A stretch of 40,149 bases of DNA from Candidatus Eiseniibacteriota bacterium (GTDB lineage: Bacteria > Eisenbacteria > RBG-16-71-46). The position numbers and the translations under genes were made by a program. The notes under the pieces were generated by a model. The model saw nothing but the letters and a program-made list of their open reading frames with translations, was not told where the DNA came from and did no database searches. Shown piece by piece: positions 1 through 39,500 of the stretch. Where the stretch lies: the NCBI GenBank assembly GCA_034678345.1, contig JAXDBZ010000038.1, positions 1-40,149 of the forward strand, written 5' to 3'. Numbering within the stretch: the stretch's first letter is position 1; each line of letters opens with the position of its first letter.

Positions 1-1846
1 GGGCGGCCGGCACCAGCCGCGCCGCGCCGGGCCGCGGCCCGCGCGCGCCGCCCAGGCGATCGAGCGCCCAGGCCCCCAGCGCGAGGCCGCCCATGAAGGC
101 GGTGAGCAGCACGCCAAGGTCCTGATAGAGCACGCCGGAGCGCGTCTGGTAGTGGAGCAGGAGCACGGACTCCGCCAGCATGCCGGCGAAGCCGGCGGCG
201 GCGGCGTAGAGCGCGCGCCGCAGGACCGCGCCACGCCGCGCCAGGGCGAGGAGCAGGAGCAGCGCGGCCGCGCCCGCCCAGGCCGTGGGCGCGCGGACCA
301 GGTCGCGGGCCCCGAGCTCCGGCAGATCGAGGGCGGCGAGCCGCGGGACGTAGCGCGACAGCCACAGCACCATCGTCGCCTGGTAGCAGGCCGGGCGCGC
401 GTCGCGGTTGGCCCGCGCCCGGTCGCGCGCCAGCCGCCGCGCTGTCTCGGCGAAGCGATCGTTCGTGTAGAGGTAGCGCGCGTAGGCCGGCGTGGCGATG
501 CGCGCGTCCGGCAGCCGGGCGGCGAGCCGCGCCGCCGGCGCCGCCGGCTCGCGCGGCAGCGGGGCGCGCGAGGCCAGCAGCAGGTTCGTCGCGCCGGGCA
601 GCACGACCACGGACGGGAAGACCTCGCGCAGCGCGCGGTGGATGCCCGCCGCCCGCCGCGTCAGCGCCGGCGTCCAGAGGTTCTCGGCGCCGCGCAGGCG
701 CAGCGCGAGCACGCCGCCGGGCGCGAGCCGGGCGGCGCAGTCCGCGAAGAACTCCCGCGTGAAGAAGCGGTTCGCGCGACCCGACGAGGGCTCGGGCATC
801 CCCGAGAGGACGAGGTCGTAGTGGCCGGGCCGGGCGAGGAAGCGGCGCGGGTCGGCGAAGACGACGCGCACCCGCGGGTCGGCCAGGGCGCCGCGCTCCG
901 CCGCCGGCAGGTGCGGCAGCACGAGCCGGAGCATCGCCGGATCCAGCTCGACGTCGGTCACCGCCACGCGGCCCAGGCGCAGCACCTGCGGGACGAGCCC
1001 CTGCGCCGCGCCGCCCAGCACCAGCACCCGCCGCACGCTGCCGCGCTGCGCCGCCGCCAGGTGCACGAACTCCTCCGCCGCGAACGTCTGGCTCTCGTAG
1101 GCGAGGGCATCGCTCTCGAAGACCACGACCTGGCCGAGACTGCCGGTCACGGTGACGCGGCCGTAGGGCGTGTCGCGGGTGGCCAGCAATCGCGGGTGGT
1201 TCGCACGCGTCATGGCCCGATCGAGCGTGGGCGAGGTGGCGAGCAGCGCCAGCGCGACGACGACGCCCGCGGCGGGGAGGACGAGGCCGGCGCGGCCGCG
1301 AGAGCGCGATGCGGCCGCGGCGCACGCCCCGCCGCCGCACACCAGCGCCATCGCCCAGTTCTGCACGCCGAGGGCCGGCAGCGCGGTGGCGAGCAGCCCG
1401 CCGGCGAGTCCCCCGGCGCTCTCGAGGGCATAGGCGCGCGCGGCCGAGCCGCGGCCCGCGGCCGTGAACCGCCGCGCCATCCAGGGGAAGAGCAGGCCGC
1501 CGAGGAGGGCGGCGGGCAGCAGGCACAGGCCGAGCGTGGCGAGCTGAAGGCCGAAGGGCAGGTCGGCGCCGGTCACGCCGCCGAAGAGGCGGCGCGAACC
1601 GCGCGCCAGCGCGACGCCGGCGGGGATCGCCACGCCCAGCGCGAGCAGGCCGGCCGCGATGGCGCGGTGCCCCGCCCGGCGGGCGGCGTGCGCGGCGAGG
1701 GCGCCGGCGGCCGTGCCGGCGAGCCAGAAGCCGAGGCCGAGCACGAGCACCAGCTCGCTGCCGTAGGAGGCCACTTCGCACTCGCGCAGCAGCACGACCT
1801 GGCCGAGCAGCGCCAGGGCACCGAGGACGACGAGTCGTACGGTCAC
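1..1846 (-). CDS. Fused polytopic-membrane / spermidine-synthase-like (SpeE-fold) protein; C-terminal part cut by the window edge
   Basis: Absent from the ORF track because it has no stop inside the window. My manual minus-strand translation from GTG at 1846 stays open to base 1. It reads VTVRLVVLGALALLGQVVLLRECEVASYGSELVLVLGLGFWLAG... (hydrophobic N-domain). This is followed by ...RVLVLGGAAQGLVPQVLRLGRVAVTDVELDPAML...GHYDLVLSGMPEPSSGRANRFFTREFF...GGVLAL (SpeE-like Rossmann core), then further hydrophobic segments (LLLLLALA..., GVLLTAFMGGLALGAWAL). The GTG overlaps the upstream stop as GTGA (1843-1846). Confidence 0.7.
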   Translation of the reverse strand, partial: MTVRLVVLGALALLGQVVLLRECEVASYGSELVLVLGLGFWLAGTAAGALAAHAARRAGHRAIAAGLLALGVAIPAGVALARGSRRLFGGVTGADLPFGLQLATLGLCLLPAALLGGLLFPWMARRFTAAGRGSAARAYALESAGGLAGGLLATALPALGVQNWAMALVCGGGACAAAASRSRGRAGLVLPAAGVVVALALLATSPTLDRAMTRANHPRLLATRDTPYGRVTVTGSLGQVVVFESDALAYESQTFAAEEFVHLAAAQRGSVRRVLVLGGAAQGLVPQVLRLGRVAVTDVELDPAMLRLVLPHLPAAERGALADPRVRVVFADPRRFLARPGHYDLVLSGMPEPSSGRANRFFTREFFADCAARLAPGGVLALRLRGAENLWTPALTRRAAGIHRALREVFPSVVVLPGATNLLLASRAPLPREPAAPAARLAARLPDARIATPAYARYLYTNDRFAETARRLARDRARANRDARPACYQATMVLWLSRYVPRLAALDLPELGARDLVRAPTAWAGAAALLLLLALARRGAVLRRALYAAAAGFAGMLAESVLLLHYQTRSGVLYQDLGVLLTAFMGGLALGAWALDRLGGARGPRPGAARLVPAA

Positions 1847-3459
1847 TTCGTATCGGATTCGCGGAAGTGGATGCTCTGGAACGTCCAGAAGCGGGCGCCG
1901 CTCTTCCACGCGTCGGCCGGCAGGCCCGCCTTGCGGCACAGGTTCTCGAGCAGGGCCGTGCGGTCCCAGCCCTGCTCGGGCGCCACCTGCGGCAGGAAGA
2001 CGGCGGTGCGCCCGTCCTTGCGGATCTGCACGCCGTCGCGGCCGACGACGATCCCCTCGGGCCCGGCGACCGGGGCGAGCGGCGTGAGCACGGAGATCTC
2101 GATCTCGACCTCCTTCAGCTCGCGCTCCTCGAGCGGGGCGAAGCGCGGGTCCTCGAAGGCCGCGGCCAGCGCCATGGCCTGCACGGTGGCGCCGAGGGGC
2201 CGGTCCGGGGTCATGTGGCCGATGCAGCCGCGCAGTTCGCCCGCCTCGAAGAGGGTGACGAACGCGCCGCGGAGGCGTTGCGCCGCCGCCGGCAGGTCGT
2301 GGGGCAGCGGCGCGGCGCCGCCGGTCGCGAACCAGTGCTCGAGGGTCGTGCGCGCGAGCCGCAGCAGGGTGCGCTTCGCCGCCGCGTCCAGCGTCGCATC
2401 GGCGTCCGCAGGCCCGGGCGGCGGGGCCCCCGCGGGATCGCCCGCTCCAGGTCCGGGCGGGGAGGCGCCCGGTCCGGACGGGGCATCCGATCCGCCGGGA
2501 CCGGCGGTGAACGAGACCGCGCCGTAGCCCACCACGCGCGTGCGGTCGTGGGGCGGCACGTCGCCGCTGTTCGCCCACGAGACCAGCGTGCCGCGGGTGG
2601 CGCCGAGGGTGCGCGCCGCCGCCATCGCCGTCATCACCGCGCCCGCCCCGCAGGCGCAGGTCTCGAGTCCTGGGTATCCGGCGTTCATCTGGGCCTCCAT
2701 GGCCGCCTGCACCCCGGCCGGGTCGAGCCGCGCGATGGCGGCGAGCACGGCGTGGTCGGAGGCGCGGCTGCCTTCGGAATCGGGATAGTGGGAGAGGTCG
2801 CTGCTCGCCACGACGAGCGGGCGGTACCCGGCGAGCGTCCGGGCCAGCGCGCGGCCGATGCGCGCGCAGGTCGCGGGCTCCTCGCTGCCCACCACCACGG
2901 GCAGGACGGGGACTCCGGGGAAGAGCACCTGGGCGAAGGGCAGCTGCACCTCGATCGAGTGCTCGCGGACGTGCACGCGCGGGTCGGCGTTGAAGTCGCC
3001 GCCGGCCGCCCGCAGCGCGGCGGCGGCCCTCGCGTCCACCCGCGCCACGCCGAGCGGGGTGCGCATGCCGGAGCCCGCGTAGACCGAGGCGCCGCGGAAG
3101 GCGGCGGTGGTGTGGTTCGTGCCGAGGACGACGATGAGGCCGTAGCGGTGCCCGCGGGCCTGCGCCCAGCCGTCGGCGGCGATCCGGCCGGAGAAGTGGT
3201 AGCCCGCGTGTGGCACCACGAGGGCGACCGGTCTCGCGCCGGCCGCGGTCCTGGCCCCGGCGAGGAGGCTCCGCACCTCCCCGGCGAGCTGCGCGGGATC
3301 GGCCGGGTAGAACTGGCCCGCCACCGCCGGGGCGCGCACCTCGGACGTCGCCGCGTCCACCGCGCAGGCCGGCGCGGCCGCGACCGGGAAGGCGGCGAGC
3401 GCGAGCAGGAGCGCCGGACGGCGCAGCGCCGTCGCGGGCGCGGGCGCGGGCGACCTCAT
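1843..3459 (-). CDS. AmmeMemoRadiSam system protein B (Memo-like) fused to protein A (AMMECR1 domain), with an N-terminal signal-peptide-like leader
   Basis: 538-aa ORF. The N-terminal half carries Memo motifs: AGQFYPADP, VVPHAGY, LGTNHT, SSDLSHYP, ETCACGAGA. A Pro/Gly-rich linker (GPGGSDAPSGPGASPPGPGAGDPAGAPPPGP, about 2400-2505) follows. The C-terminal half is AMMECR1-like: GAFVTLFEAGELRGCIGH, AFEDPRF, IEISVLTPL, GRTAVFLPQV. The N-terminus MRSPAPAPATALRRPALLLALAAFPVAAAPACA looks like an export signal. The start overlaps the upstream stop (ATGA at 3456-3459). Confidence 0.85.
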   Translation of the reverse strand: MRSPAPAPATALRRPALLLALAAFPVAAAPACAVDAATSEVRAPAVAGQFYPADPAQLAGEVRSLLAGARTAAGARPVALVVPHAGYHFSGRIAADGWAQARGHRYGLIVVLGTNHTTAAFRGASVYAGSGMRTPLGVARVDARAAAALRAAGGDFNADPRVHVREHSIEVQLPFAQVLFPGVPVLPVVVGSEEPATCARIGRALARTLAGYRPLVVASSDLSHYPDSEGSRASDHAVLAAIARLDPAGVQAAMEAQMNAGYPGLETCACGAGAVMTAMAAARTLGATRGTLVSWANSGDVPPHDRTRVVGYGAVSFTAGPGGSDAPSGPGASPPGPGAGDPAGAPPPGPADADATLDAAAKRTLLRLARTTLEHWFATGGAAPLPHDLPAAAQRLRGAFVTLFEAGELRGCIGHMTPDRPLGATVQAMALAAAFEDPRFAPLEERELKEVEIEISVLTPLAPVAGPEGIVVGRDGVQIRKDGRTAVFLPQVAPEQGWDRTALLENLCRKAGLPADAWKSGARFWTFQSIHFRESDTK

Positions 3460-4403
3460 CGTTCCCCCCTCGTGTCGTGGCGCGGCACGTGCGGCGGCAG
3501 ATCGAGCGCGGCCAGCTCGGCGCCGGGCGGGCCCGCCGTGATCGTGACCGCACCATAGCCCACGACCCGCTCTCGGTCACCCATTGGAGCGTCGCCGCTG
3601 TTGGCGTGCGAGACCACGGTACCGCGCGTGGCCCCCAGCGCGCGGGCCGCCGCCAGGGTGGCGAGCAGCGGCGAGGCGCCGCAGGCGCAGGTGGCGAGGC
3701 CCTCGCGGCCGGCGCTCTCCTCGGCGCGGATCGTGCGACGCAGGCCGTCGGGGTCGAGCCGGGCGATGGCGGCGAGCACGGCGCGATCGGCAGCGACCGC
3801 GTCGTCGTAGCCCGGGTAGTGCGACAGGTCGCTGCTCGAGACGACCAGCGCGCGCCGGCCGGCGAGCACGCCGGCCAGTGCCACGCCGAAGCGCTCGCAG
3901 CGGCGGGGGTCCTCGCTGCCGACGACCACCGGCAGGATGGGCACGCCCGGCAGCACCGTCTGCACGAAGGGCAGCTGCACCTCGATCGAGTGTTCGCGCT
4001 CGTGCGGCCGCGGGTCGGAGGTGCACTCGCGGTCGGCCGCGAGCAGCGCCGACGCCGTGTCGCCGTCCACCGGCACGGTGCCGAGCGGGGTGCGGAAGCC
4101 GCCGCCGAGGAAGACCGCGACCCCCGAGAAGTTCGCCACCGTGTGGTTGGGGCCGAGCAGGACGACGAGGTCGTAGCGCTGGTTCTCGGTCTGGCGCCAC
4201 CCGTCGGCGGCGATCAGTCCCGAGTACACGTAGCCGGCGTGCGGCACGACCAGCGCGATGGGCCGCGACCCACGCTCCGCGTGGGTGCCCCCGAGCGGGG
4301 GCAGCGCCCGCTCGAGCAGGGCCCGCACGGTCGCCTCGAGCCGCGCCGGGTCGGCGGGGTAGAAGCTGCCGGCCACCACCGGGGAGCGCACCGCCGGTCG
4401 CAT
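3456..4403 (-). CDS. AmmeMemoRadiSam system protein B (Memo-like), stand-alone paralog without a signal peptide
   Basis: 315-aa ORF with the same Memo motifs as the neighbouring fusion: AGSFYPADP, VVPHAGY, LGPNHT, SSDLSHYP, ATCACGASP, VVGYGAV. The start lies 4 nt after the stop of the radical SAM gene. Confidence 0.85.
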   Translation of the reverse strand: MRPAVRSPVVAGSFYPADPARLEATVRALLERALPPLGGTHAERGSRPIALVVPHAGYVYSGLIAADGWRQTENQRYDLVVLLGPNHTVANFSGVAVFLGGGFRTPLGTVPVDGDTASALLAADRECTSDPRPHEREHSIEVQLPFVQTVLPGVPILPVVVGSEDPRRCERFGVALAGVLAGRRALVVSSSDLSHYPGYDDAVAADRAVLAAIARLDPDGLRRTIRAEESAGREGLATCACGASPLLATLAAARALGATRGTVVSHANSGDAPMGDRERVVGYGAVTITAGPPGAELAALDLPPHVPRHDTRGER

Positions 4404-4407
4404 CGTC

Positions 4408-5670
4408 TCAGCTCCACACGCCCGGGATGGCGCGGCCGCACTTCGGGCAGCGGCCGCCGCGCAGGTGGACGGCGCTCACGAACATGCCGTCGCGCTCGAT
4501 CACCTTCGTGCCGCAGCCCGGGCACCAGGTGTGGTTGCCGGGATGCCCCGGCAGGTTGCCGACGTAGGCGAAGCGCAGACCCTGCGCCATGCCGATCTCT
4601 CGCGCGCGCTCGAGCGTGGCCACCGGCGTGGCGGGGAGGTTGCGCAGCTGGTAGTCGGGGTGGAAGCGCGTGAAGTGCACCGGCACGTCGGGGCCCAGCT
4701 CGCCGGCGACCCACTTCGACAGCTCCGTGAGGTCGCGCGGCGAGTCGTTGAGCGTCGGCACGACCAGGTTGACGATCTCGAGGTGCACGCCGCTCCTGGC
4801 CACCTGCCGCAGGCTGCGCAGCACCGGCTTCAGCTCCGCCCCGCACACGTCGCGGTAGAAGTCCTCGCGGAAGCCCTTGAGGTCGATCTTGATGGCGTCG
4901 AGCACGCCGCACAGCTCGCGCAGCGGGGCCTCGTTCATGAAGCCGCAGGAGACGAGGACGGAGCGCCGGCCCAGTGGCCGGGCCGCCCGGGCGATGTCGG
5001 CCATGTACTCGAGGAAGACGGTGGGCTCGTTGTAGGTGAAGGCGATGACCGGGGCGGCGCGGTCCACCGCGGCGCGCGCGATGGCGGCCGCCGGCACGCT
5101 CGGCTGCGCGTAGTCCTCGGGGCGGGCCTGCGAGATCTCCCAGTTCTGGCAGAACTTGCAGCGCAGCGGGCAGCCGCTGGTGGCCAGCGAGTAGGCCGCG
5201 GCTCCCGGCAGGAAGTGGAAGAACGGCTTCTTCTCGATCGGGTCCACGTGGATGCTCATGGGCCGCCCGTACACCAGGCTCCTGAGCTCGCCGCCGACGT
5301 GGATGCGCGCCCCGCAAGCGCCGCGCTCACCCTCGGCCAGCGTGCAGCCGCGCGCGCAGAGCTGGCAGCGCACGAGCGTCCTCGCGTGCCGCGGTGCCGT
5401 GCCGGGCCCGGGGGTGCCCGCGCGCAGCGTGGGTCCGCCCGCGGCGTGGCAGGCGGCGCAATCGGTCGAGGCGGTCGAGACCCAGTAGCGCGCGCGGGGC
5501 GCGCGGCGGACCAGCTCGGCGCGGGGATCCCCGGCCGCGCGCGCGGCCGGCGGCAGAAGGATCTCGAGGCCGCGGGCGGCGGAGTGCAGCGCGCCGCCGG
5601 CCAGCAGGGCGCCGCAGCCCGCGCCGGTGGTGCGCAGGAAATCGCGCCGGGAGAAGGTGGATCGGGACAT
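4408..5670 (-). CDS. AmmeMemoRadiSam system radical SAM enzyme (PflA-like activase fold) with an N-terminal twin-arginine signal extension
   Basis: I trimmed the 904-aa track ORF to the internal ATG at 5670, which has GAGG about 7 nt upstream. N-terminus: MSRSTFSRRDFLRTTGAGCGALLAG (Tat-type motif). Family-typical Cys box: VRCQLCARGCTLAEGERGACGAR. Also DPIEKKPFFHFLPG, the radical SAM CX3CX2C motif CPLRCKFCQNWEISQ (about 5148-5174), and a C-terminal zinc ribbon CPGCGT...CPKCG. Confidence 0.85.
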   Translation of the reverse strand: MSRSTFSRRDFLRTTGAGCGALLAGGALHSAARGLEILLPPAARAAGDPRAELVRRAPRARYWVSTASTDCAACHAAGGPTLRAGTPGPGTAPRHARTLVRCQLCARGCTLAEGERGACGARIHVGGELRSLVYGRPMSIHVDPIEKKPFFHFLPGAAAYSLATSGCPLRCKFCQNWEISQARPEDYAQPSVPAAAIARAAVDRAAPVIAFTYNEPTVFLEYMADIARAARPLGRRSVLVSCGFMNEAPLRELCGVLDAIKIDLKGFREDFYRDVCGAELKPVLRSLRQVARSGVHLEIVNLVVPTLNDSPRDLTELSKWVAGELGPDVPVHFTRFHPDYQLRNLPATPVATLERAREIGMAQGLRFAYVGNLPGHPGNHTWCPGCGTKVIERDGMFVSAVHLRGGRCPKCGRAIPGVWS

Positions 5671-5717
5671 GGCCGCGCCTCGTTGGGCCGAAGCGTAGCG
5701 CAGGCGCGGGGGGCGGT

Positions 5718-7301
5718 CTACTCCCGGCCCGCGAACAGGCTCGGATAGCGGGCGAGGAAGGCGATGGCGTGCCGCAGCTCGCGCAGGTCCACCGCCTCGC
5801 CGATCTTGTGCGCGTTCTGCATGATGCCGGGCCCCAGCCCGAAGATGGCCGGGTGCCGCATGGTCCCGGCGGTGACCCAGCGCTTGGACTCGGGGACCAC
5901 CAGCGCGGGCTCGTCCACCGGCGCGGGCCAGCCCACGCCGTCGGTGGAGAAGCGCCAGTACCCGAGCCGCGGCTCGCGCCGCAGCGAGCCGCCGCCCTCG
6001 CGCGGCTCGTCCACGTGCGGGGTGACCACGGCGCGGTAGCAGGCCCGGGCCGCGGCGATGGCCGGGTGGTCCTCGGGGGTGCGCCAGGCCCCGTAGACCC
6101 GCGGGTTGCCCGGCGTGTAGCCGCGCCAGGTCGTCTCCTCGTAGCGTGGCACGGCGATCTCGACGTGGAGGCCGTCGGCGATCGCCCGGGCGACGCTGTC
6201 CAGGCCGGCGACGGCGCGCAGGGCGTCGTCGGGCGACTCGCCGGCGGTGAGCCGGCGGTCGAAGCGGAAGGTGAAGCGCTCGGGCACCGAGCAGTCGCTC
6301 GCCGTCTCGACCTTCGCCCAGGTGGCGGTGCGCGAGCCGGGTCCCAGCCGCTCGTCGTGGCCGAAGCTCTCGCCACGCTCGTGCCGCGCTGCCGCCTCGG
6401 CGAGGATGGCCGCGCCGTGCTCGAGCGGGTTGAGGCCCTCGCGCGGGATCGAGCCGTGGCAGGACCGCCCGGTGACGCGCACCTCGATGGTCATGCGGCC
6501 CCGCTGACCGCAGCGGATGACCAGGGCGCCGTCCGTGGTGTCGCCGCTCATCTCGGTGAGCACGACGACGTCGGGCAGCATGGCGGGCGGCGCGCCGGGG
6601 AAGACCCGGCGCGTCAGGTAGAGCGGGCCGCCGCCCTCGTTGTCCTCCTCGGCCGGGGTGACGTAGCTGCGTACGACGACGCCGCGCAGGGCGCCGGCGG
6701 CGCGCAGCTCGACCAGGATGCGCGAGGCGACGATCTGCGCCACCACCCCGCCGAGCTGGTCGGCCGCCCCGCGGCCGAAGACCAGGTGCTCCCACTCGTC
6801 GTCGGGCGGCAGCCAGCCCAGCTCGCTCCGCAGGAAGCCGCGGTCGAGCCGCGCCGGGTCCACCAGGCCGTCGTAGGGGTCGAGTCCCCCGGTGCGCTCG
6901 TGCCAGCGGTCGCGCAGCGCGTGTACCGTGTCGGCGTGGCCGTCGAGGTAGACGACGCGCTTGTCGCGGCGCGCCACGCCGTCGTCGGGGTCCTCGAGCA
7001 CCCAGTAGAGGTTGCCGAAGGCGTCGAAGCCGACGTCGTCCTCGTGCAGCAGGCCGCCGGTCTCGAGCAGCGCCTGGCGCAGGTAGCGCAGGCGCGGGCC
7101 CTCGTGGTTGCTGGTGCCGCACAGCGGATCGCCGCCGGACCCCGACCCCGGGGGTGCCCCGGCGGGTGCCCCCGGGGCGCGGTCCACGTGGTCGGCGGGG
7201 ATGCGGATGGCCTCGCGCAGGAGGGAGGCCGCCAGCGGCAGGTCGCGCGCGGCGGCCGAGGCGATGGCCGCGTCCAGCCCGCCGCGCGCTCCGTCGCTCA
7301 T
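5718..7301 (-). CDS. M20 family metallopeptidase / amidohydrolase (ArgE/DapE/YgeY-like), 527 aa
   Basis: M20 metal and catalytic motifs: LDGHADTV, GRGAADQLGG, PAEEDNEGGG, and the dimerisation-domain-like GRMTIEVRVTGRSCHGS. The ATG at 7301 lies 1 nt after the stop of the upstream carbamoyltransferase. The N-terminal region has a low-complexity insert, APGAPAGAPPGSGSGGDP. Confidence 0.8.
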   Translation of the reverse strand: MSDGARGGLDAAIASAAARDLPLAASLLREAIRIPADHVDRAPGAPAGAPPGSGSGGDPLCGTSNHEGPRLRYLRQALLETGGLLHEDDVGFDAFGNLYWVLEDPDDGVARRDKRVVYLDGHADTVHALRDRWHERTGGLDPYDGLVDPARLDRGFLRSELGWLPPDDEWEHLVFGRGAADQLGGVVAQIVASRILVELRAAGALRGVVVRSYVTPAEEDNEGGGPLYLTRRVFPGAPPAMLPDVVVLTEMSGDTTDGALVIRCGQRGRMTIEVRVTGRSCHGSIPREGLNPLEHGAAILAEAAARHERGESFGHDERLGPGSRTATWAKVETASDCSVPERFTFRFDRRLTAGESPDDALRAVAGLDSVARAIADGLHVEIAVPRYEETTWRGYTPGNPRVYGAWRTPEDHPAIAAARACYRAVVTPHVDEPREGGGSLRREPRLGYWRFSTDGVGWPAPVDEPALVVPESKRWVTAGTMRHPAIFGLGPGIMQNAHKIGEAVDLRELRHAIAFLARYPSLFAGRE

Positions 7302-7302
7302 C

Positions 7303-8448
7303 TCACTTCGCCAGGGCTTCGAGCCGCCGCGCCAGATCGGGGGTCTTGGCCACGGCCAGCAGGGCCATGATGACGTACATCTTGTACTGCGCCTGGCGGG
7401 CGACGTTCACGGCGTGCTGCTTCATCACGCCGTGCGACACCTCGTCACCGATGTCGGCGGGCAGCGGGTGCATGTAGAGCGCGTTCCCGCCCTTCGTCAG
7501 CCCCATGCGCCGCTCGTCGCAGATCCAGTCCTTGTGCGCGGCGTTCCCGGCCAGCGCCGCCTTCTCGATCTCCGCCAGCTTCGCCTTGTCCTTGGACTTG
7601 TTGGCGGCCACGCGCGCGAGCATGAGGTCGTAGGGGCCCCAGGACTTGGGATAGACGATGTCGGCGCCCGCGAAGGCGTCGTCCATCGAGTTCGTGACGC
7701 GGAACGAGCCGCCCGAGGCCTTCGCCGCGGCGTGCGCGTACTCCATCGTGTCGGGCATGAGGTGGTAGCCCTCGGGGTGGGCGAGCACGACCTCGGCGCC
7801 GAAGCGGGTGAACAGCATCGAGCAGCCCTGCGCCACCGACAGCGGTTTGGCGTAGGAGGGCGAGTAGGCCCAGGAGACGGCGATCTTCCTGCCCTGCAGG
7901 CCGCCCGGGTGGCATTCGCGCATCCACATCAGGTCGGCCATGGTCTGCGTCGGGTGGTCGATGTCGCACTGCAGGTTCACGACCGGGACCTTGCGCGGGT
8001 CCTTCACCGCGGCCAGGTAAGCGTCGATACCCTGGGCGACGTCGCGCATGAAGGAGTTGCCCTCGCCGATGATCATGTCGTGGCGCACGCCCAGCGCGTG
8101 GGAGTTCATGCCCAGCATGGCGCCGGTCTCGACGGCGGTCTCGCCGTGCGAGACCTGCGTCGAGCCGCCATCCACGATGACCGGGCTGAGGCCGAGTCGG
8201 GCGCAGGCGCCCGCCCACGCCGACTTCGTGCGCGTGGACTGGTCGAAGAACAACGCCCAGCCCAGCTCGTCCTCGAACAGGGCGGTGGACCGGCCGGCGT
8301 AGTCGAGGCCGGCGAAGCGGCCGATCACCGCCATGAGCGTCTCCAGCTCGGGCGTCGTCCAGTCGCGCGTCAGCAGCATGTTGCGGCCGAACAGCGCGTC
8401 CAGGGCGGCCTGGGCGGGGACCGGCGGCAGGGTCGTCACGGGGCTCAT
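7303..8448 (-). CDS. ygeW: YgeW-type (knotted) carbamoyltransferase family protein
   Basis: I trimmed the 981-aa track ORF to the ATG at 8448, which is preceded by GAAGGAG. Transcarbamylase motifs: FFDQSTRTKSAW (STRTx carbamoyl-phosphate loop), GVRHDM, CDIDHPTQTMADL (HPTQ), YMHPLPA. The 382-aa length and overall layout fit the YgeW subgroup better than ArgF or PyrB. The subgroup assignment is by eye only. Confidence 0.75.
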   Translation of the reverse strand: MSPVTTLPPVPAQAALDALFGRNMLLTRDWTTPELETLMAVIGRFAGLDYAGRSTALFEDELGWALFFDQSTRTKSAWAGACARLGLSPVIVDGGSTQVSHGETAVETGAMLGMNSHALGVRHDMIIGEGNSFMRDVAQGIDAYLAAVKDPRKVPVVNLQCDIDHPTQTMADLMWMRECHPGGLQGRKIAVSWAYSPSYAKPLSVAQGCSMLFTRFGAEVVLAHPEGYHLMPDTMEYAHAAAKASGGSFRVTNSMDDAFAGADIVYPKSWGPYDLMLARVAANKSKDKAKLAEIEKAALAGNAAHKDWICDERRMGLTKGGNALYMHPLPADIGDEVSHGVMKQHAVNVARQAQYKMYVIMALLAVAKTPDLARRLEALAK

Positions 8449-8606
8449 GCGGGCTCCTTCTGCGGGTGCGGGAGCCGGCGGGCCGGGAGGGCCCGGCCGG
8501 CGCCACGGGATGGCAGCGCGCGGGAGAGCGCGGGTACGAAAACGGCCCGACATCCTACCCCGCGGGCCGGGGGGCGTCCACCCGGGCCGCGCCGGCGCGC
8601 GGGGGT

Positions 8607-8635
8607 TTGCCCGCCCCGGGCGTGTCCCGTATCCT
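8607..8635 (+). promoter_or_regulatory. Candidate sigma70-like promoter for the plus-strand PLP/carbamate kinase operon
   Basis: TTGCCC (8607-8612), a 17-nt spacer, then TATCCT (8630-8635). It sits about 40 nt upstream of the ATG at 8677, which is preceded by GGAGAAGGAG. Confidence 0.3.
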
Positions 8636-8676
8636 TCACCCCTTATACCACCCCGCGCGGGGAGAAGGAGCCGCTC

Positions 8677-10155
8677 ATGCCGTCGAAGCACACCATCAAC
8701 GAAGCCGTCCTCGCCCGGGCCGTGGCCCGCTGCCGCGAGCGCAACATCATCATCCCCACCTTTGCCGAGCAGAAGGACCCGGCGCTCGTGCCCGCGCCGA
8801 TCCGCAAGCGGCTGGCCGGCGTCGGGCTGTGGGACGTCAACCCGCTCAACCTGTACCGCATCACGTGGAAGAACGAGCCGAAGGCGAAGGGTGGGCTGTA
8901 CAACCAGGGCAACTGGATCGAGTTCCCGCCCGAGCTGACCGGCGTCCCCGCACGCATCGTCGGGCTGGTGGGCAAGTACTTCCCGACCGGTGCCCACAAG
9001 GTCGGCGCCGCCTTCGGCTGCCTGGTGCCCCGGCTGGTGAGCGGCGAGTTCGACCCCGAGAACCACAAGGCGGTCTGGCCCTCGACCGGGAACTACTGCC
9101 GCGGCGGCGCCTTCGACTGCGCCCTGCTCGCCTGCAAGGCCATCGCCATCCTGCCCGAGGGCATGTCGCGCGAGCGCTTCGAGTGGTTGCACGAGATCGG
9201 CACGGACGAGGTCATCGCCACGCCCGGCACCGAGTCGAACGTCAAGGAGATCTACGACAAGTGCTGGGAGCTGCGGAAGACGCGCGGCGACGAGGTCCTG
9301 ATCTTCAACCAGTTCGACGAGTTCGGGAACGCGGTCTGGCACTACACCATGACCGGCTCGATCATCGAGGAGATCCACGAGCGGATCCGCCGGCCCGACG
9401 ACCGCCTCGCCGTCTACGTCTCGGCCACGGGCTCGGCCGGCACCATCGCCGCCGGCGACTACCTGCGGACGAGGTTCCCGCACCTCAAGGTCGTGGCGAC
9501 CGAGGCGCTGCAGTGCCCGACGCTGTTCGCCAACGGCTATGGCGCGCACCGCATCGAGGGCATCGGCGACAAGCACGTGCCCTGGGTGCACAACGTGCGC
9601 AACACCGACATGGTCGCGGCCATCGACGACGAACAGACGATGAGCCTGCTGCGCCTGTTCAACGAGGAGACCGGCATCGAGTTCCTCGCCGGCCAGGGAC
9701 TGAAGGCCGACTTCCTGAAGAGCCTGCCGCTGCTCGGCATCTCCAGCATCTGCAACCTGGTGGCGGCCATCAAGGCGGCGAAGTACTACGAGCTGGACGG
9801 TCGCGACGTGCTGTACACGGCGCTCACCGACTCGATGGAGCTGTACGACTCGCGCAAGCAGGAGTTGCGCGACGAGCGCGGCCCCTACACCCGCGAGCAG
9901 GCGGCCATGGACTACGCGCGCTACCTGCAGGGCGCGGGAACGGACTACCTGCAGGAGCTGGGCTACCGCGACCGCAAGCGGCTCCACAACCTGAAGTACT
10001 TCACCTGGGTGGAGCAGCAGGACAAGACCTCGGAGGAGCTCGCGGAACTGTGGGACCCGGATTTCTGGACCGGGATCTGGGCCCAGGTCCCCGAGTGGGA
10101 CGAGCGGATCCGCGAATTCAACGAACGCACCGGGCTGCTCCAGCAGCTGACCTGA
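8677..10155 (+). CDS. PLP-dependent enzyme of the tryptophan-synthase-beta/cysteine-synthase fold (PALP) with a ~150-aa helical C-terminal extension; specificity unknown
   Basis: 492 aa from the ATG at 8677, which has a strong SD (GGAGAAGGAG). Candidate PLP lysine in YFPTGAHKVGAAF (AAG at 8998-9000). Fold-type II markers: WPSTGNYCRGGAF, YVSATGSAGTIAAG, HRIEGIGDKHVP. The upstream part of the 1015-aa track ORF is Arg/Gly junk. Confidence 0.75.
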   Translation: MPSKHTINEAVLARAVARCRERNIIIPTFAEQKDPALVPAPIRKRLAGVGLWDVNPLNLYRITWKNEPKAKGGLYNQGNWIEFPPELTGVPARIVGLVGKYFPTGAHKVGAAFGCLVPRLVSGEFDPENHKAVWPSTGNYCRGGAFDCALLACKAIAILPEGMSRERFEWLHEIGTDEVIATPGTESNVKEIYDKCWELRKTRGDEVLIFNQFDEFGNAVWHYTMTGSIIEEIHERIRRPDDRLAVYVSATGSAGTIAAGDYLRTRFPHLKVVATEALQCPTLFANGYGAHRIEGIGDKHVPWVHNVRNTDMVAAIDDEQTMSLLRLFNEETGIEFLAGQGLKADFLKSLPLLGISSICNLVAAIKAAKYYELDGRDVLYTALTDSMELYDSRKQELRDERGPYTREQAAMDYARYLQGAGTDYLQELGYRDRKRLHNLKYFTWVEQQDKTSEELAELWDPDFWTGIWAQVPEWDERIREFNERTGLLQQLT

Positions 10156-10265: not shown

Positions 10266-11216
10266 ATGACGAACGAGAAGAAGCTGGCGATCCTCGCCGT
10301 GGGCGGGAACTCGCTGATCATCGACGAGAAGCACCGGACGGTGGAGGACCAGTACGCCGCCGTCGAGGAGACGTGCCGGCACATCGCCGGACTGGTGAAG
10401 AAGGGCTACCGCGTGGTGGTGACGCACGGCAACGGCCCGCAGGTCGGCTTCATCCTGCGGCGCAGCGAGCTGGCCGCCCACGAGCTGCACGAGGTCCCGC
10501 TCGACTCCTGCGGCGCCGACACCCAGGGCGCCATCGGCTACCAGGTGCAGCGCGCCCTGTACAACGAGATGAAGGACTGGCCCGAGAAGCCCGTGGTCGC
10601 GACCGTGGTCACCCAGGTGCTGGTGGACCGCACGGACCCGTCGTTCCAGAAGCCCTCGAAGCCGATCGGCTCGTTCATGGACGAGGCGAAGGCGAAGCTG
10701 CACCGCGAGCGGGACAAGTGGGACATCGTCGAGGACGCCGGCCGCGGCTTCCGCCGCGTCGTCGCCTCGCCGCGGCCCCAGCGGATCGTCGAGCTGGAGG
10801 CCATCCGGCGCCTGCTCGAGAACGACATCCTGGTGGTGGCGGTCGGCGGCGGTGGTATCCCGGTGGTCGAGGACGAGCAGGGCCACCTGCAGGGCGCGGC
10901 TGCGGTCATCGACAAGGACCTCGCCACCAGCCTGCTGGCGCGCGAACTGAAGGCCGACGTGCTCATCATCTCGACCGCGATCGAGAAGGTCTGCCTGAAC
11001 TACCGCAAGCCCGACCAGAGGGACATCGACCGCATGAACCTGGCCGAGGCCAAGCGGTACCTGGCCGAGGGGCACTTCGCGCCGGGCAGCATGAAGCCGA
11101 AGATCGAGGCGATCGTCGAGTTCCTCGAGGCGGGCGGGACGCAGGCGCTCATCACCGACCCGCTGCACCTCGTGCCCGCGCTGGAGGGGAAGACGGGCAC
11201 CTGGATCATCGCATGA
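10266..11216 (+). CDS. arcC: Carbamate kinase
   Basis: 316 aa. Matching segments: KLAILAVGGNSL, VVVTHGNGPQVG, DSCGADTQGAIGY, RRVVASPRPQRIVE, VVAVGGGGIPVV, AVIDKDLATSLLA, FAPGSMKPKIEA. This is a textbook carbamate kinase layout. The start was trimmed from the track ORF beginning at 8466. Confidence 0.9.
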   Translation: MTNEKKLAILAVGGNSLIIDEKHRTVEDQYAAVEETCRHIAGLVKKGYRVVVTHGNGPQVGFILRRSELAAHELHEVPLDSCGADTQGAIGYQVQRALYNEMKDWPEKPVVATVVTQVLVDRTDPSFQKPSKPIGSFMDEAKAKLHRERDKWDIVEDAGRGFRRVVASPRPQRIVELEAIRRLLENDILVVAVGGGGIPVVEDEQGHLQGAAAVIDKDLATSLLARELKADVLIISTAIEKVCLNYRKPDQRDIDRMNLAEAKRYLAEGHFAPGSMKPKIEAIVEFLEAGGTQALITDPLHLVPALEGKTGTWIIA

Positions 11217-12451
11217 CCACCGGCCGGGCCGCGCTGGCCGGGCTGCGCTGCGTGCGCTGCGGGACGCTCACGCCCGCCGCCGACGACCTCTACGTCTGCC
11301 CGGCCTGCGGCGCCAACACGCAGGTCGAGTACGACTACGACGCCGTGAAGCGCGACTGGTCGCGCGAGGCCCTGGCCGCCGACCGCGACCCGACCCTGTG
11401 GCGCTACCTGCCGCTGCTGCCGGTGAGCGCGCGGCTCGAGGGCCCGCCGGTGGGCGGCACGCCGCTCGTGCCGGCGCCGCGGCTGGCGAAGGAGTTGGGA
11501 CTCGCGCAACCGGTGCTGCTCAAGGACGACGGCCGCAACCCCAGCGCCTCGTTCAAGTGCCGCGCCAGCGCGGTGGCGCTGCGGCGCGCGCTGGACGTGG
11601 GCCGCACGCTGGTGACCGGCGCCTCGACCGGCAACGCCGCCTCGGCCACCGCCGTGCTCGCCGCCGCGCCGGGCATCCGCACGCGCATCTTCGTGCCGAA
11701 GAACGCGCCGCGCGCCAAGATCGCCCAGCTGCTGACCTTTGGCGCCGAGGTCCTGGCGGTCGAGGGGACGTACGACCAGGCCTTCGACCTGTGCCTCGAG
11801 GCGACGCGGCGCTTCGGCTGGTACAACCGCAACACCGGCTTCAACCCCTGGACGCGCGAGGGGAAGAAGACGGTCTCGTTCGAGATCTGCGAGCAGCTCG
11901 ACTGGCAGGTGCCGGACCTCGTCGTCGTGCCGGTGGGCGACGGCAACATCCTGTCGGGGGTCTGGAAGGGCTTCGTCGAGTTCCAGCGCCTCGGTTTCAT
12001 CGAGCGGCTGCCGAGGCTGCTCGCCGTGCAGGCCGAGGGCAGCGCCGCCATCGTGAACGCCGCCGCCGGCGACGGCGTCATCCGGCCGGTCTCGGGCGAG
12101 ACGGTGGCCGACTCGATCTCGGTGAGCCTGCCGCGGGACGGCGAGGCGGCGGTGCAGGCCATCCGCGCCTCGGGCGGCTTCGGCGTCACCGTGCCCGACG
12201 CGGCCATCCTCGCCGCCATCGGCGAGCTGGCGCGCGGCGCCGGCGTGTTCGCTGAGCCCGCGGCGGCGGCGACGTGGGCCGGCCTGAAGGAGGCGGTCCG
12301 GCAGGGCCGCGTGGACCCGGCCTGGCGCGTGGTGGCGCTCGTCACCGGCAACGGCCTCAAGGACGTGGCCGCGGCCATGAAGACGGCGGGGGAGCCGCGG
12401 GTCATCCCGCCCGACCCGTCCGTGCTGGACACGTTGTTCCCGGAAGGATAA
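11213..12451 (+). CDS. Threonine-synthase-like PLP enzyme (fold type II) with an N-terminal zinc ribbon; function not assigned
   Basis: 412 aa. The ATG overlaps the carbamate kinase stop (ATGA at 11213-11216). Zinc ribbon: CVRCGT...CPACG. PLP-lysine motif NPSASFKCRAS (11549-11569). Also TGASTGNAASA, VVVPVGDGNILSG and LVTGNGLKD. Confidence 0.75.
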   Translation: MTTGRAALAGLRCVRCGTLTPAADDLYVCPACGANTQVEYDYDAVKRDWSREALAADRDPTLWRYLPLLPVSARLEGPPVGGTPLVPAPRLAKELGLAQPVLLKDDGRNPSASFKCRASAVALRRALDVGRTLVTGASTGNAASATAVLAAAPGIRTRIFVPKNAPRAKIAQLLTFGAEVLAVEGTYDQAFDLCLEATRRFGWYNRNTGFNPWTREGKKTVSFEICEQLDWQVPDLVVVPVGDGNILSGVWKGFVEFQRLGFIERLPRLLAVQAEGSAAIVNAAAGDGVIRPVSGETVADSISVSLPRDGEAAVQAIRASGGFGVTVPDAAILAAIGELARGAGVFAEPAAAATWAGLKEAVRQGRVDPAWRVVALVTGNGLKDVAAAMKTAGEPRVIPPDPSVLDTLFPEG

Positions 12452-12518
12452 GAGGAGACGGTCATGGCGGCCGGCGTCGCGCTCGGCCGCCACCACCCAC
12501 GATCAAGGGAGAGGAACG

Positions 12519-17385: not shown

Positions 17386-17419
17386 GCGTCGCGCCGGGCC
17401 GCTCCCGGTCGCCGCGGGC

Positions 17420-18568: not shown

Positions 18569-18594
18569 GCTCGCGTCCTTTCGCCGCCGAAGCG

Positions 18595-18623
18595 TTGCCG
18601 CCGCGGCCCCCGCAGGCTAGCAT
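18595..18623 (+). promoter_or_regulatory. Candidate sigma70-like promoter for the class V aminotransferase gene
   Basis: TTGCCG (18595-18600), a 17-nt spacer, then TAGCAT (18618-18623). The SD GGAGGAG immediately precedes the ATG at 18659. Confidence 0.35.
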
Positions 18624-18658
18624 GACGCGAAGCGGCACGCCCAAGACCCGGAGGAGAC

Positions 18659-36281: not shown

Positions 36282-36326
36282 TAGGAACTCGGCCGGGGCG
36301 AGGCAAGGGCCGCGGCGCGGACCGGC

Positions 36327-38306: not shown

Positions 38307-38352
38307 GGCCGGAGACAGTAAGGGCTCGGCGGGGACGAATCAAGAGGGCGGT

Positions 38353-39199: not shown

Positions 39200-39390
39200 C
39201 AGTCTTCCGGGTGCCGCAACGCGCGGCGAAGGCGCGGACGGACGTCGTCCGCGCTGAAGGGAAGGGGGTGAGAATCCCCCACGGTCCCGCCACTGTGATG
39301 GGCGACCCGGGTCTCACGAGCCACTGGTCCGAGCCGGACTGGGAAGGCGAGACCCACAGGCCCTGAGTCAGGAAACCTGCCCGGGAGAGA
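39200..39390 (+). promoter_or_regulatory. Cobalamin (B12) riboswitch
   Basis: Conserved core strings in the canonical order: CCGGGTGCC, GAAGGGAAGGGGGTGAGAATCCCCCACGGTCCCGCCACTGTG, AGCCACTGG, TGGGAAGGC. The B12 box AGTCAGGAAACCTGCC is at 39366-39381. Confidence 0.85.
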
Positions 39391-39483: not shown

Positions 39484-39500
39484 GAGGCGCGGTTGACGCC

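Follow-up and report, generated by a model that had tools for sequence, protein, structure and literature searches.

The AmmeMemoRadiSam neighbourhood, together with AMMECR1-dioxygenase fusions, was first noted by Balaji and Aravind in 2007 (PMC2034487), and the published functional prediction for the canonical system is RNA base modification (PMC2034487, PMC4075521). The AMMECR1 Pfam family has been reported as the strongest anaerobe indicator (PMC13386939), which was counted here as anaerobic context.

The operon described here was analysed in a window of 40,149 nucleotides (the whole stretch of DNA examined). It is probably one copy of a widespread extracytoplasmic subclass of AmmeMemoRadiSam, with a three-gene core and, given the predicted localisation, radical chemistry at the membrane surface.

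Operon layout, the fusion and the additional Memo

Four genes run head to tail on the minus strand. Direct reading of the junctions gave spacings of +4, -4 and -4 nt, confirming the coupling that an earlier note on this DNA had described.

4408-5670, minus strand: radical SAM (rSAM) gene, 420 aa; ATG at 5670 read directly
3456-4403, minus strand: free Memo gene, 315 aa
1843-3459, minus strand: Memo::AMMECR1 fusion gene, 538 aa; protein B, then protein A, of AmmeMemoRadiSam in one polypeptide
2-1846, minus strand: SpeE-like gene, first 615 of ~710 aa; C-terminus beyond the window start

The rSAM and free Memo genes are joined by TGA-gacg-ATG (4-nt gap at 4404-4407). Free Memo and the fusion overlap in ATGA at 3456-3459, shortly 5' of which lies a GGGGGG/GAGG-like Shine-Dalgarno sequence, and the fusion and SpeE-like gene overlap in GTGA at 1843-1846, where the GTG start agrees with the N-termini of 38 orthologues. 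GC3 was 0.94-0.96 across all four genes, the value expected of genuine genes at the genome's 75% GC.

The family assignments proposed from the translations were borne out by profile searches, in which every match lay above its cut-off: TIGR04337 for rSAM (367 bits, cut-off 220), TIGR04336 for free Memo (247 bits, cut-off 26) and for fusion residues 42-317 (228 bits, cut-off 26), TIGR04335 for fusion residues 364-532 (174 bits, cut-off 99), and PF01564 for the SpeE-like protein (48 bits, cut-off 22.9). As the earlier note had stated, both Memo translations hold PHAGY, NHT, SSDLSHY and TCACG, and the AMMECR1 half of the fusion holds LRGCIG. H84, H116, D221, H224 and C270 of the fusion's Memo half were invariant in the homologue alignment (A1), as were R410-G-C412-I-G and D437-x-R-F of its AMMECR1 half.

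3361..3459, minus strand: predicted N-terminal Sec-type signal of the fusion, residues 1-33 (...AAAPACA/VD), from homologue N-termini and alignment
2371..2508, minus strand: Pro/Gly/Ala-rich linker, fusion residues ~318-363, bounded by the HMM matches that end at residue 317 and begin at residue 364

In the N-terminus of the fusion, MRSPAPAPATALRRPALLLALAAFPVAAAPACA/VD, a positively charged n-region is combined with a hydrophobic core and an A-x-A site, in keeping with its earlier description as signal-like. A hydrophobic N-terminal segment was present in 109 of the 119 full-length fusion homologues, and in 72 of those 109 it ended in a lipoprotein-like Cys after a small residue; the lipobox of the window's fusion (A-P-A-C) is non-canonical. 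The Pro/Gly linker noticed earlier was located at nt ~2371-2508, and its length differs from homologue to homologue. The earlier note had called this operon atypical. That description does not suit the fusion, which was noted in 2007 (PMC2034487), joins Memo to AMMECR1 in 120/120 best homologues and is carried by at least 562 species genomes in GTDB, nor the export signals on the fusion and rSAM, which are the rule within the subclass. It does suit the signal-less extra Memo, the sole lineage-specific or unusual part of the operon.

An in-frame stop precedes the free Memo, whose start is the first start codon after that stop and lies 5 residues ahead of the conserved VRxPAVAG, so there is no room for a signal. 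The free Memo retains the beginning of the linker seen in the fusion (AGPPGAELAALDLPP), and in an NJ tree the free copies were monophyletic and sister to the Memo domains of same-clade fusions. It was absent at the 80 genome loci surveyed around the fusion and confined to the window's own clade. These comparisons indicate that the Memo half of the fusion was duplicated once, long ago, and that the copy has been under purifying selection. That it is instead a functionless gene, decaying after the fusion gene was duplicated in tandem, is most improbable. It does look like a truncated fusion that has lost its signal and AMMECR1 half while keeping the start of the linker, and its dN/dS (0.42-0.52) is somewhat above that of the rSAM gene. 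Against decay, the reading frame is unbroken and encodes every Memo metal and active-site motif, its profile score is as given above, and its GC3 is 0.94; the metagenome contigs that carry it number at least 7; relatives whose fusions share only 64% identity with the window's keep both junctions, of 4 nt and -4 nt; and its tree parallels that of the fusion with shorter branches. Since the clade thus encodes two Memo domains per AMMECR1, the fixed 1:1 Memo:AMMECR1 stoichiometry suggested earlier was not upheld.

Conserved neighbourhood and predicted localisation

Two surveys were made, one anchored on the fusion (80 genome loci from many phyla, 54 of them informative) and a reverse survey anchored on the SpeE-like gene (80 metagenome loci); both comprised the best 80 matches to a query from the window's own clade, and their frequencies are biased. 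Only three gene families recurred around the fusion. At 34/54 informative loci the fusion bore a signal and had both an rSAM and a SpeE-like gene next to it. The SpeE-like neighbour was present at 34/38 loci with an adjacent rSAM gene compared with 1/16 without one (Fisher p = 6e-9), and at 0/9 signal-less fusions. The adjacent rSAM genes, from other phyla, encoded the RR motif in 36/38 cases and CxxCH in 31/38. From the other anchor, an AMMECR1 domain lay <500 nt upstream of the SpeE-like gene in 65/70 metagenome loci, and both the fusion and rSAM genes were present at 37 of the 41 loci with enough upstream sequence. The gap between fusion and SpeE-like gene had a median of 6 nt, with overlap in 10/36. 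The linkage of the three genes is therefore conserved over phyla when viewed from both anchors, and the SpeE-like gene, suggested earlier as a further component and now seen well beyond this genome, is a tightly coupled downstream partner. Memo neighbourhoods were reportedly surveyed by Burroughs et al. in 2019 (J Biol Chem 294:10211), whose work may already cover this context.

The features of the rSAM protein that bear on its location and chemistry are as follows.

5566..5670, minus strand: Tat signal region, residues 1 to ~35, with SRRDFLR at residues 7-13
5386..5460, minus strand: CxxCH...H insertion (C71-x-x-C74-H75, H95), between the first beta-strand (ARYW) and the 4-Cys motif
5314..5367, minus strand: family 4-Cys motif, C102-x2-C105-x3-C109-x9-C119; putative auxiliary metal or cluster site, four Cys invariant
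5149..5172, minus strand: radical SAM CX3CX2C motif (C167, C171, C174), invariant; PF04055 64 bits

A zinc-ribbon-like 4-Cys motif was also observed at the C-terminus.

The Tat motif read earlier in the rSAM leader was supported by TIGR01409 (19.9 bits, cut-off 16.7). Among 49 homologues R8 and R9 were invariant and F11 and L12 nearly so, the twin arginines being followed by F/L-L and a mildly hydrophobic segment, although TIGR01409 reached E <= 0.01 in only 17/49. The leader region of the AF2 model (pLDDT 84.9 overall) had low pLDDT, as expected of a leader. Leaders with RR plus a hydrophobic stretch were found in 28 of ~105 single-domain representatives from the best 150 50%-identity clusters, so that predicted rSAM export signals recur among diverged members.

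The residues of the CxxCH...H insertion (C71, C74, H75 and H95) were invariant in the homologue alignment (A3), and CxxCH was found in 45/54 rSAM N-termini at other loci. Most rSAM members of the exported subclass carry this site; CxxCH is missing from roughly one in five Tat-bearing orthologues with a retained SpeE-like partner (L003, L012, L031), and canonical cytoplasmic members are without the insertion (L075). It had no match to any Pfam family.

332..1231, minus strand: SpeE-fold domain of the SpeE-like protein, residues ~206-505, predicted extracytoplasmic; GGAAQG for GGGDG, SGMPEP for D-x-x-D-P

The AF2 model (pLDDT 92.6, pTM 0.91) of a full-length orthologue (P0124, 78% identical to the window's protein) has a SpeE fold between two blocks of 7 TM helices each. 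The fold is complete, N-terminal beta-domain included, and Foldseek matched it to aminopropyltransferases (TMt 0.71-0.76, E 1e-11 to SpeE structures). Over 61 sequences the short loops on the N-terminal side held 20.9 K+R compared with 3.3 on the domain side, a 6-fold bias consistent for each of 13 short loops, which by the positive-inside rule places the SpeE-fold domain outside the cytoplasm as a prediction.

A reading developed from the earlier note would make this a one-off operon whose membrane spermidine synthase provides, or handles, the polyamine-type compound on which the AmmeMemoRadiSam proteins act. The SpeE fold is genuine, the gene is translationally coupled to the fusion, and the ribose-binding Glu (VELD) and adenine-binding Asp (DPR) are retained. 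In profile alignment to T. thermophilus SpeE, however, the catalytic Asp is replaced by Gly (G-M-P-E-P, invariant context), which does not support a polyamine role, and the conserved dcSAM-selecting acid of the Gly loop is gone. Every SpeE equivalog cut-off was missed by far (64 vs 250, 88 vs 260 and 90 vs 472), the linkage is not confined to one genome, and the domain's predicted location is the periplasm, where we know of no pool of dcSAM or putrescine. The polyamine proposal is thus very unlikely.

The localisation calls draw on one short HMM, motif conservation and hydropathy, and it was considered whether the system might instead be cytoplasmic and membrane-tethered, with N-terminal hydrophobic segments that are mispredicted or act as uncleaved anchors and a SpeE-fold domain facing a cytoplasm in which SAM and reductant are available. 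To our knowledge, all characterised radical SAM enzymes act in the cytoplasm; moreover, the Tat HMM is weak in many homologues, and the topology derives from the positive-inside rule together with the number of helices predicted. We nevertheless regard this arrangement as rather unlikely. The leader pattern is invariant at the twin arginines and repeated in diverged representatives, an N-in signal-anchor would still leave the catalytic domain outside, and the loop charge bias is consistent throughout. Three independent proteins point in the same direction, and the 9 signal-less fusions lack the SpeE-like partner. The envelope-directed reading given earlier, with a signal-like fusion N-terminus, a Tat motif on rSAM and neither on the middle Memo, therefore holds as a prediction.

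Proposed mechanism

In the favoured extracytoplasmic reading, the rSAM, a PFL-activase-like enzyme, would be made and Fe-S-loaded in the cytoplasm and then exported folded via Tat, while the Memo::AMMECR1 fusion would leave by a Sec-type, often lipoprotein-like, signal. The SpeE-fold domain of the 14-helix protein would face the periplasm, having kept the binding of an adenosyl ligand and lost aminopropyl-transfer catalysis. All catalytic domains would then meet at the outer face of the cytoplasmic membrane. The reaction may be a radical modification, sensitive to oxygen, whose substrate is embedded in the membrane or belongs to the envelope and would be neither RNA nor a free polyamine; the predicted location argues against an RNA substrate for this subclass. 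Hydrogen abstraction would fall to rSAM, and the Memo metal site and the conserved Cys of AMMECR1 would complete the chemistry, with the 14-TM protein presenting the substrate or supplying an adenosyl cofactor. The CxxCH...H site could conceivably bind a c-type haem or other metal and feed in electrons from periplasmic carriers, although Tat substrates do not usually have haem attached. The window's lineage has gained a fourth gene by copying the Memo half of the fusion without its signal; the product might leave the cytoplasm as a hitch-hiker on rSAM. Counting against this scheme, we know of no source of SAM or low-potential electrons for an extracytoplasmic radical SAM enzyme, and of none that has been demonstrated.

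One version would avoid the need for periplasmic SAM. Here rSAM is exported with SAM and a reduced cluster bound and places one stable radical or modification on Memo::AMMECR1, which turns over without SAM; the 14-TM protein only handles substrate, and CxxCH is structural. The closest solved structure to the rSAM model was the PFL-activating enzyme 3cb8 (TMt 0.81, E 2e-15; rmsd 2.6 A over 254 columns), and the best NCBIfam side-hits were all glycyl-radical activases, which act on proteins. In addition, Tat export of folded, cofactor-loaded proteins and heterodimers has been described (PMC10924467). Against it, a glycyl-radical motif was not evident in Memo or AMMECR1, and both the extracytoplasmic adenosyl-binding SpeE fold and the invariant CxxCH...H are left unexplained. 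This version is unlikely and is a refinement of the favoured reading, not an alternative to it.

Comparison with known systems

The window rSAM shares a partial-TIM-barrel core of similar size with glycyl-radical activases such as 3cb8. It differs in being only 17% identical to 3cb8 and far below all activase equivalog cut-offs, in adding the N-terminal 4-Cys and C-terminal zinc-ribbon-like motifs and a predicted Tat leader, and in having no glycyl-radical enzyme partner gene nearby. Polyamine aminopropyltransferases (SpeE: TIGR00417, PRK00811) share with the SpeE-like protein the full fold and both adenosyl-ligand residues, and the membrane-fused PRK03612 type also shares the 7-TM-plus-SpeE arrangement, its profile aligning over TM4-TM7 as well. 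Unlike these enzymes, the SpeE-like protein has Gly for the catalytic Asp, an unconserved Gly-loop acid, a second 7-TM block after the domain, a predicted extracytoplasmic domain and a gene adjoining AmmeMemoRadiSam genes.

As in Tat-exported Fe-S redox enzymes (hydrogenase small/large subunits, DmsAB), an SRRxFL leader stands on a cofactor-containing protein, and a signal-less partner gene, here free Memo, lies directly downstream, as in hitch-hiker export. In contrast to those systems, the ancestral module has no signal-less partner, and a complex of rSAM with free Memo is hypothetical; we know of no radical SAM enzyme among the known Tat substrates. Human MEMO1 and AMMECR1 consist of homologous domains in which the conserved active-site residues are the same, but the eukaryotic proteins are separate, intracellular and without an rSAM partner.

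Like the canonical AmmeMemoRadiSam system, the operon combines TIGR04335 (A/AMMECR1), TIGR04336 (B/Memo) and TIGR04337 (rSAM) above curated cut-offs, with CX3CX2C, the 4-Cys motif, the Memo His/Asp/Cys site and AMMECR1 RGCIG and DxRF intact. It departs from that system in its predicted export signals (Tat on rSAM, Sec or lipoprotein-type on the fusion), in the CxxCH...H insertion, in the second Memo of the window's lineage and in the dedicated 14-TM SpeE-fold protein that is the constant third gene of the subclass. Since these proteins are predicted to lie outside the cytoplasm, the RNA base modification prediction would not apply to the subclass.

Organisation of the operon and family placement of its products

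Four coupled genes on the minus strand occupied the start of the window. This arrangement had been proposed in the earlier note and was borne out by the ORF listing and by direct reading of the junctions.

4408-5670, minus strand: radical SAM enzyme gene (TIGR04337)
3456-4403, minus strand: free Memo gene (TIGR04336)
1843-3459, minus strand: Memo::AMMECR1 fusion gene (TIGR04336 and TIGR04335)
2-1846, minus strand, running off the window start: SpeE-like membrane protein gene (PF01564)

The radical SAM and free Memo genes were separated by 4 nt (TGA-gacg-ATG), the free Memo and fusion genes shared an ATGA overlap (3456-3459) with a G-rich Shine-Dalgarno sequence ahead of it, and the fusion and SpeE-like genes shared a GTGA overlap (1843-1846). 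The GTG start of the SpeE-like gene matched the N-termini of 38 orthologues, and GC3 was 0.94-0.96 in all four genes. No promoter or terminator sites were detected in a scan of positions 1-9000, no riboswitch was found near the operon with Rfam, and an exact-sequence look-up returned no record identical to the window's fusion protein.

Profile searches confirmed the family placement of each product. The radical SAM enzyme scored 367 bits against TIGR04337 (cut-off 220), with its CX3CX2C cysteines (C167, C171 and C174) invariant; the free and fused Memo copies scored 247 and 228 bits, respectively, against TIGR04336 (cut-off 26); the AMMECR1 half scored 174 bits against TIGR04335 (cut-off 99); and the SpeE-like protein scored 48 bits against PF01564 (cut-off 22.9). 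All of the motifs that had been quoted for these proteins were found in the translations, including PHAGY, NHT, SSDLSHY and TCACG in both Memo copies. In the fusion alignment, H84, H116, D221, H224 and C270 of the Memo half were invariant, as were R410-G-C412-I-G and D437-x-R-F of the AMMECR1 half. The Tat motif that had been assigned to the radical SAM enzyme, SRRDFLR, scored 19.9 bits against TIGR01409 (cut-off 16.7). The free Memo, as had also been stated, carried no signal; its start was the first start codon past an in-frame stop and lay only five residues ahead of the conserved VRxPAVAG, and therefore there was no room for one.

Other features noted in the window were as follows.

5718-7301, minus strand: YgeY-like M20 hydrolase, in a ygeW/ygeY/arcC-type cluster beside the operon
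7303-8448, minus strand: YgeW-like knotted carbamoyltransferase (380 bits, short of the 453 cut-off)
8677-10155, plus strand: PLP enzyme of the same cluster
10266-11216, plus strand: carbamate kinase (402 bits against a cut-off of 266)
12381-13475, plus strand: second carbamoyltransferase of the cluster
17420-18616, minus strand: second YgeY-like M20 gene of the cluster
34290-38339, minus strand: two tandem amino-acid-permease family (PF13520) genes of ~670 aa, each ~200 residues longer than the profile
39231-39381, plus strand: cobalamin riboswitch RF00174 (85 bits), directly upstream of the next feature
39486-40148, plus strand, truncated at the window end: ORF for a TonB-dependent receptor with a Plug domain

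In relatives (loci L081 and L083 and the P0008 contig) the OTCase and M20 genes were syntenic with the operon, which was not the case in other phyla. Since this synteny was seen only within the window's clade, the ygeW/ygeY/carbamate-kinase cluster was rejected as part of the system.

Recurrence of the module and origin of the free Memo

The Memo-AMMECR1 fusion has been on record since 2007 (PMC2034487). Both Pfam domains were present in all of the best 120 homologues of the window's fusion (477-549 aa), and relatives were encoded in at least 562 GTDB species genomes. A hydrophobic N-terminal segment was found in 109 of 119 full-length homologues; in 72 of these 109 signal-bearing proteins the segment ended in a Cys after a small residue, a lipoprotein-like pattern, with a strict lipobox ([LVI][ASTVI][GAS]C at the end of the h-region) in only 19. 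The lipobox of the window's fusion was non-canonical (A-P-A-C, then A) and could also be read as an SPI site, A-C-A|V. A single MAG locus (L066, 8320-10354) showed the reverse of the situation in the window: one Memo domain preceded a tandem pair of AMMECR1 domains, so that here it was the other half that was doubled.

Gene neighbourhoods were surveyed at 80 genome loci around the fusion, which were the best matches to a query from the window's own clade. The phyla included Acidobacteriota, Desulfobacterota/Syntrophales, KSB1, Calditrichota, Latescibacterota and Krumholzibacteriota, with Eisenbacteria, Ignavibacteria, Fibrobacterota, Chloroflexota and others as further groups; Thermoanaerobaculum aquaticum, to our knowledge a cultured species, was named among the loci (L039). 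All-against-all ORF clustering of the 80 loci revealed only three recurrent families near the fusion, namely the fusion itself, the radical SAM enzyme and a ~720-aa SpeE-like protein. Otherwise, the search for conserved neighbours turned up only generic families whose positions varied, such as PAS/histidine kinases and ABC ATPases, and the module was therefore taken to consist of three genes.

The radical SAM, Memo and AMMECR1 proteins, which are encoded in one coupled operon here, were likewise encoded together at 38 of the 54 loci that had enough flanking DNA to be informative, and 34 of the 54 combined a signal-bearing fusion with adjacent radical SAM and SpeE-like genes. An RR motif ~150 residues before CX3CX2C was present in 36 of the 38 adjacent radical SAM genes, and CxxCH in 31. 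The SpeE-like gene was found at 34 of the 38 loci with an adjacent radical SAM gene compared to one of the 16 without (Fisher p = 6e-9), and at none of the nine where the fusion had no hydrophobic N-terminus. A reverse survey was anchored on the SpeE-like family at 80 metagenome loci, again the best matches to a query from the window's clade. An AMMECR1 domain lay no more than 500 nt upstream of the SpeE-like gene at 65 of 70 loci, and both the fusion and the radical SAM enzyme were present at 37 of the 41 with at least 3.3 kb of upstream sequence. The gap from the fusion to the SpeE-like gene had a median of 6 nt, with overlaps of -4 or -1 at 10 of 36 loci. Since this adjacency was conserved in both surveys, it is not confined to this genome, and the SpeE-like protein, previously put forward as a candidate fourth component, is a genuine component of the system.

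An alternative order, in which the fusion was followed by the radical SAM gene and sometimes then by the SpeE-like gene, was observed at loci L035, L063, L074, L075 and L078. In the window's clade, the region corresponding to sequence past the window start carried a POT/PTR2-type MFS transporter gene after the module (L081, 13851-15488; L083, 13588-15174) and, in L081, a gene for a second, 507-aa Spermine_synth protein (17176-18699).

No second Memo was found at the 80 genome loci. A second copy with the same 4-nt and -4-nt junctions was present in relatives whose fusions were 80% (L081/L082), 73% (P0008 contig) and 64% (L083) identical to that of the window, and a second Memo was also found in seven metagenome contigs of this clade; it was absent from a 59% relative (L084). 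In a neighbour-joining tree the free copies formed one clade, sister to the Memo domains of the same lineage's fusions and with parallel branching, which indicates that the free Memo arose when the Memo half of the fusion was duplicated, once and long ago. Compared to the fusion gene, the signal and AMMECR1 half have been lost and the first linker residues kept. Its dN/dS (0.42-0.52) was close to that of the fusion (0.31-0.44), and the possibility that this gene is a decaying remnant was rejected. The free Memo may be exported as a hitch-hiker of the radical SAM enzyme, the Tat substrate whose gene lies immediately upstream, as is described for other Tat heterodimers in PMC10924467; alternatively, it may act in the cytoplasm.

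Predicted localisation and a proposed mechanism

Among 49 homologues of the radical SAM enzyme (63-87% identical), the RR pair was invariant and F-L nearly so, ahead of a mildly hydrophobic stretch, with TIGR01409 matched at E <= 0.01 in only 17. The invariant residues comprised R8, R9, P58, R61, W63, C71, C74, H75, H95, a 4-Cys motif (C102/C105/C109/C119), CX3CX2C and a C-terminal 4-Cys zinc-ribbon-like motif. When compared to signal-less members such as that of L075, CxxCH...H proved to be inserted after the first strand and ahead of the 4-Cys motif; this N-terminal insertion matched no Pfam family, including the cytochrome families. The AF2 model (pLDDT 84.9) showed a disordered leader; residues 50-76 packed against the core, a short helix began at CxxCH, and pLDDT values were 84-92 up to residue 70. 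Judged from these residues, CxxCH...H may equally be a Cys2His2 metal site or a c-type haem attachment site with a distal ligand.

More diverged members were sampled as the best 150 of 1465 50%-identity representatives (E <= 1e-30). Of the ~105 single-domain proteins among these 150, 28 had an RR-plus-hydrophobic leader and three of the ~105 had CxxCH, and thus export signals recur in diverged members. A further ~36 of the 150 (P0365-P0500) were 450-1150 aa long with the radical SAM domain at either end, so larger multidomain fusions are common in this family. The enzymes of L063, L074 and L078 had an RR leader and no CxxCH insertion, which points to at least two exported subtypes; that of L075 had neither.

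The SpeE-like protein was modelled using the full-length orthologue P0124 (709 aa, 78% identical to the window copy) and a 61-sequence alignment. In the model (pLDDT 92.6, pTM 0.91), a complete SpeE fold was flanked on each side by seven TM helices. Topology was assessed from the TM helices of the AF2 model, which were Ala/Gly-rich. The mean K+R content of the short loops was 20.9 on the N-terminal side and 3.3 on the SpeE-domain side, consistently loop by loop, which under the positive-inside rule predicts an extracytoplasmic SpeE domain. TM1-6 and TM9-14 showed weak similarity in the same orientation (hhalign P 0.0025), and on this weak alignment the layout would be 6+6, with TM7, the SpeE domain and TM8 inserted in the middle. 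The TM blocks matched no Pfam or NCBIfam family even at E <= 10, and no MFS or other transporter profile; a transporter fold is therefore only an idea. In the family alignment (P0124 numbering) C370 was invariant and C487 and C170 were nearly so. The conserved R21, E22, E31, R82, R85, Q567, Q575 and D576 lay in short loops on the SpeE-domain side, an arrangement that in the model hints at an active site where membrane and periplasm meet.

The Tat leader of the radical SAM enzyme, the Sec/lipoprotein-type signal of the fusion and the charge bias of the 14-TM protein co-varied across loci and together led to an extracytoplasmic reading: by three independent predictions, the catalytic domains of all three kinds would lie at the outer face of the cytoplasmic membrane. 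We take the operon to belong to an extracytoplasmic AmmeMemoRadiSam subclass, with all localisation predicted, that would act on a membrane or envelope substrate. The interpretation in the earlier note was thus supported in part. Its SpeE-like component and, as a prediction, its envelope-directed reading stood; its description of the operon as atypical mostly did not, since the fusion, the signals and the SpeE-like partner recur widely and the extra Memo is the only lineage-specific feature. The operon is not a singular oddity, and its main interest is as a conserved, apparently extracytoplasmic radical SAM module.

A large cross-phylum subclass with export signals on Memo, AMMECR1 and the radical SAM enzyme, and with a predicted outward adenosyl-binding membrane partner, narrows the search for a substrate to what can be reached, in this subclass, from the outer face of the cytoplasmic membrane. 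A further question is the source of SAM and low-potential electrons for a radical SAM enzyme outside the cytoplasm. There are three candidate answers: a haem or metal site at CxxCH...H, the outward adenosyl-binding domain on a possibly transporter-like protein, and single-shot action of the radical SAM protein as a pre-loaded activase. A more far-reaching reading, which as a whole we consider rather unlikely, is that the module is the first radical SAM system to work outside the cytoplasm. Electrons would reach the Tat-exported enzyme through covalently bound haem (CxxCH...H), the transporter-like 14-TM protein would supply its own periplasmic SpeE-fold domain with SAM or a different adenosyl compound, and the Memo::AMMECR1 lipoprotein would then use radical chemistry to modify a lipid of the membrane or a molecule of the envelope, in anaerobes. 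Were this the case, the chemistry ancestral to human MEMO1 and AMMECR1 would be directed at a substrate that is small and hydrophobic, or of envelope type, and not at RNA. The leader, the CxxCH site and the soluble SpeE-fold domain provide experimental handles.

Comparison with known systems

Conservation of Memo and AMMECR1 extends from archaea to humans, and both have links to human disease. Memo was reportedly linked to isoprenoid modification by Burroughs et al. in 2019, which would fit a substrate in the membrane or envelope. For AMMECR1, RNA base modification is the standing prediction (PMC2034487, PMC4075521), which does not fit, at least for the extracytoplasmic subclass as predicted here. 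A radical chemistry under anaerobic conditions would be in keeping with PMC13386939, in which the AMMECR1 Pfam family was the strongest indicator of anaerobes. No functional study of AmmeMemoRadiSam, of AMMECR1 with radical SAM, the periplasm or twin-arginine export, or of an exported radical SAM enzyme was found in the literature, and the single Tat paper in which radical SAM is mentioned proved to be unrelated.

The closest solved structure to the radical SAM enzyme was the PFL-activating enzyme (TMt 0.81). Only the fold is shared with the glycyl-radical-enzyme activases, and membership of that group was rejected: the best score was 54.8 against a cut-off of 231.75 (TIGR02493), and the module contains no glycyl-radical-enzyme gene.

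The SpeE fold, with its N-terminal beta-domain and Rossmann domain, was matched by Foldseek to 1uir, 7xih, 3o4f and others (TMt 0.70-0.76, E 1e-11 to 1e-8); the whole 14-TM model retrieved only SpeE/aminopropyltransferase structures, with no match for the membrane part. The window protein scored below the cut-offs of TIGR00417 (63.7 bits against 249.55), PRK00811 (88.4 against 260) and PRK03612 (90 against 472), and the full-length orthologue likewise missed all SpeE equivalog cut-offs. Residues were compared by profile-to-PDB alignment with Thermus thermophilus SpeE as the reference. The ribose-binding Glu (VELD) and adenine-binding Asp (DPR) of SpeE were kept in the SpeE-like family. In contrast, the catalytic Asp (D-L-T-D-P) was replaced by Gly in an almost invariant G-M-P-E-P (SGMPEP in the window protein), and GGGEG, which holds the dcSAM-selecting acid, was replaced by GG-x-x-x-G with no conserved acid (GGAAQG in the window protein).
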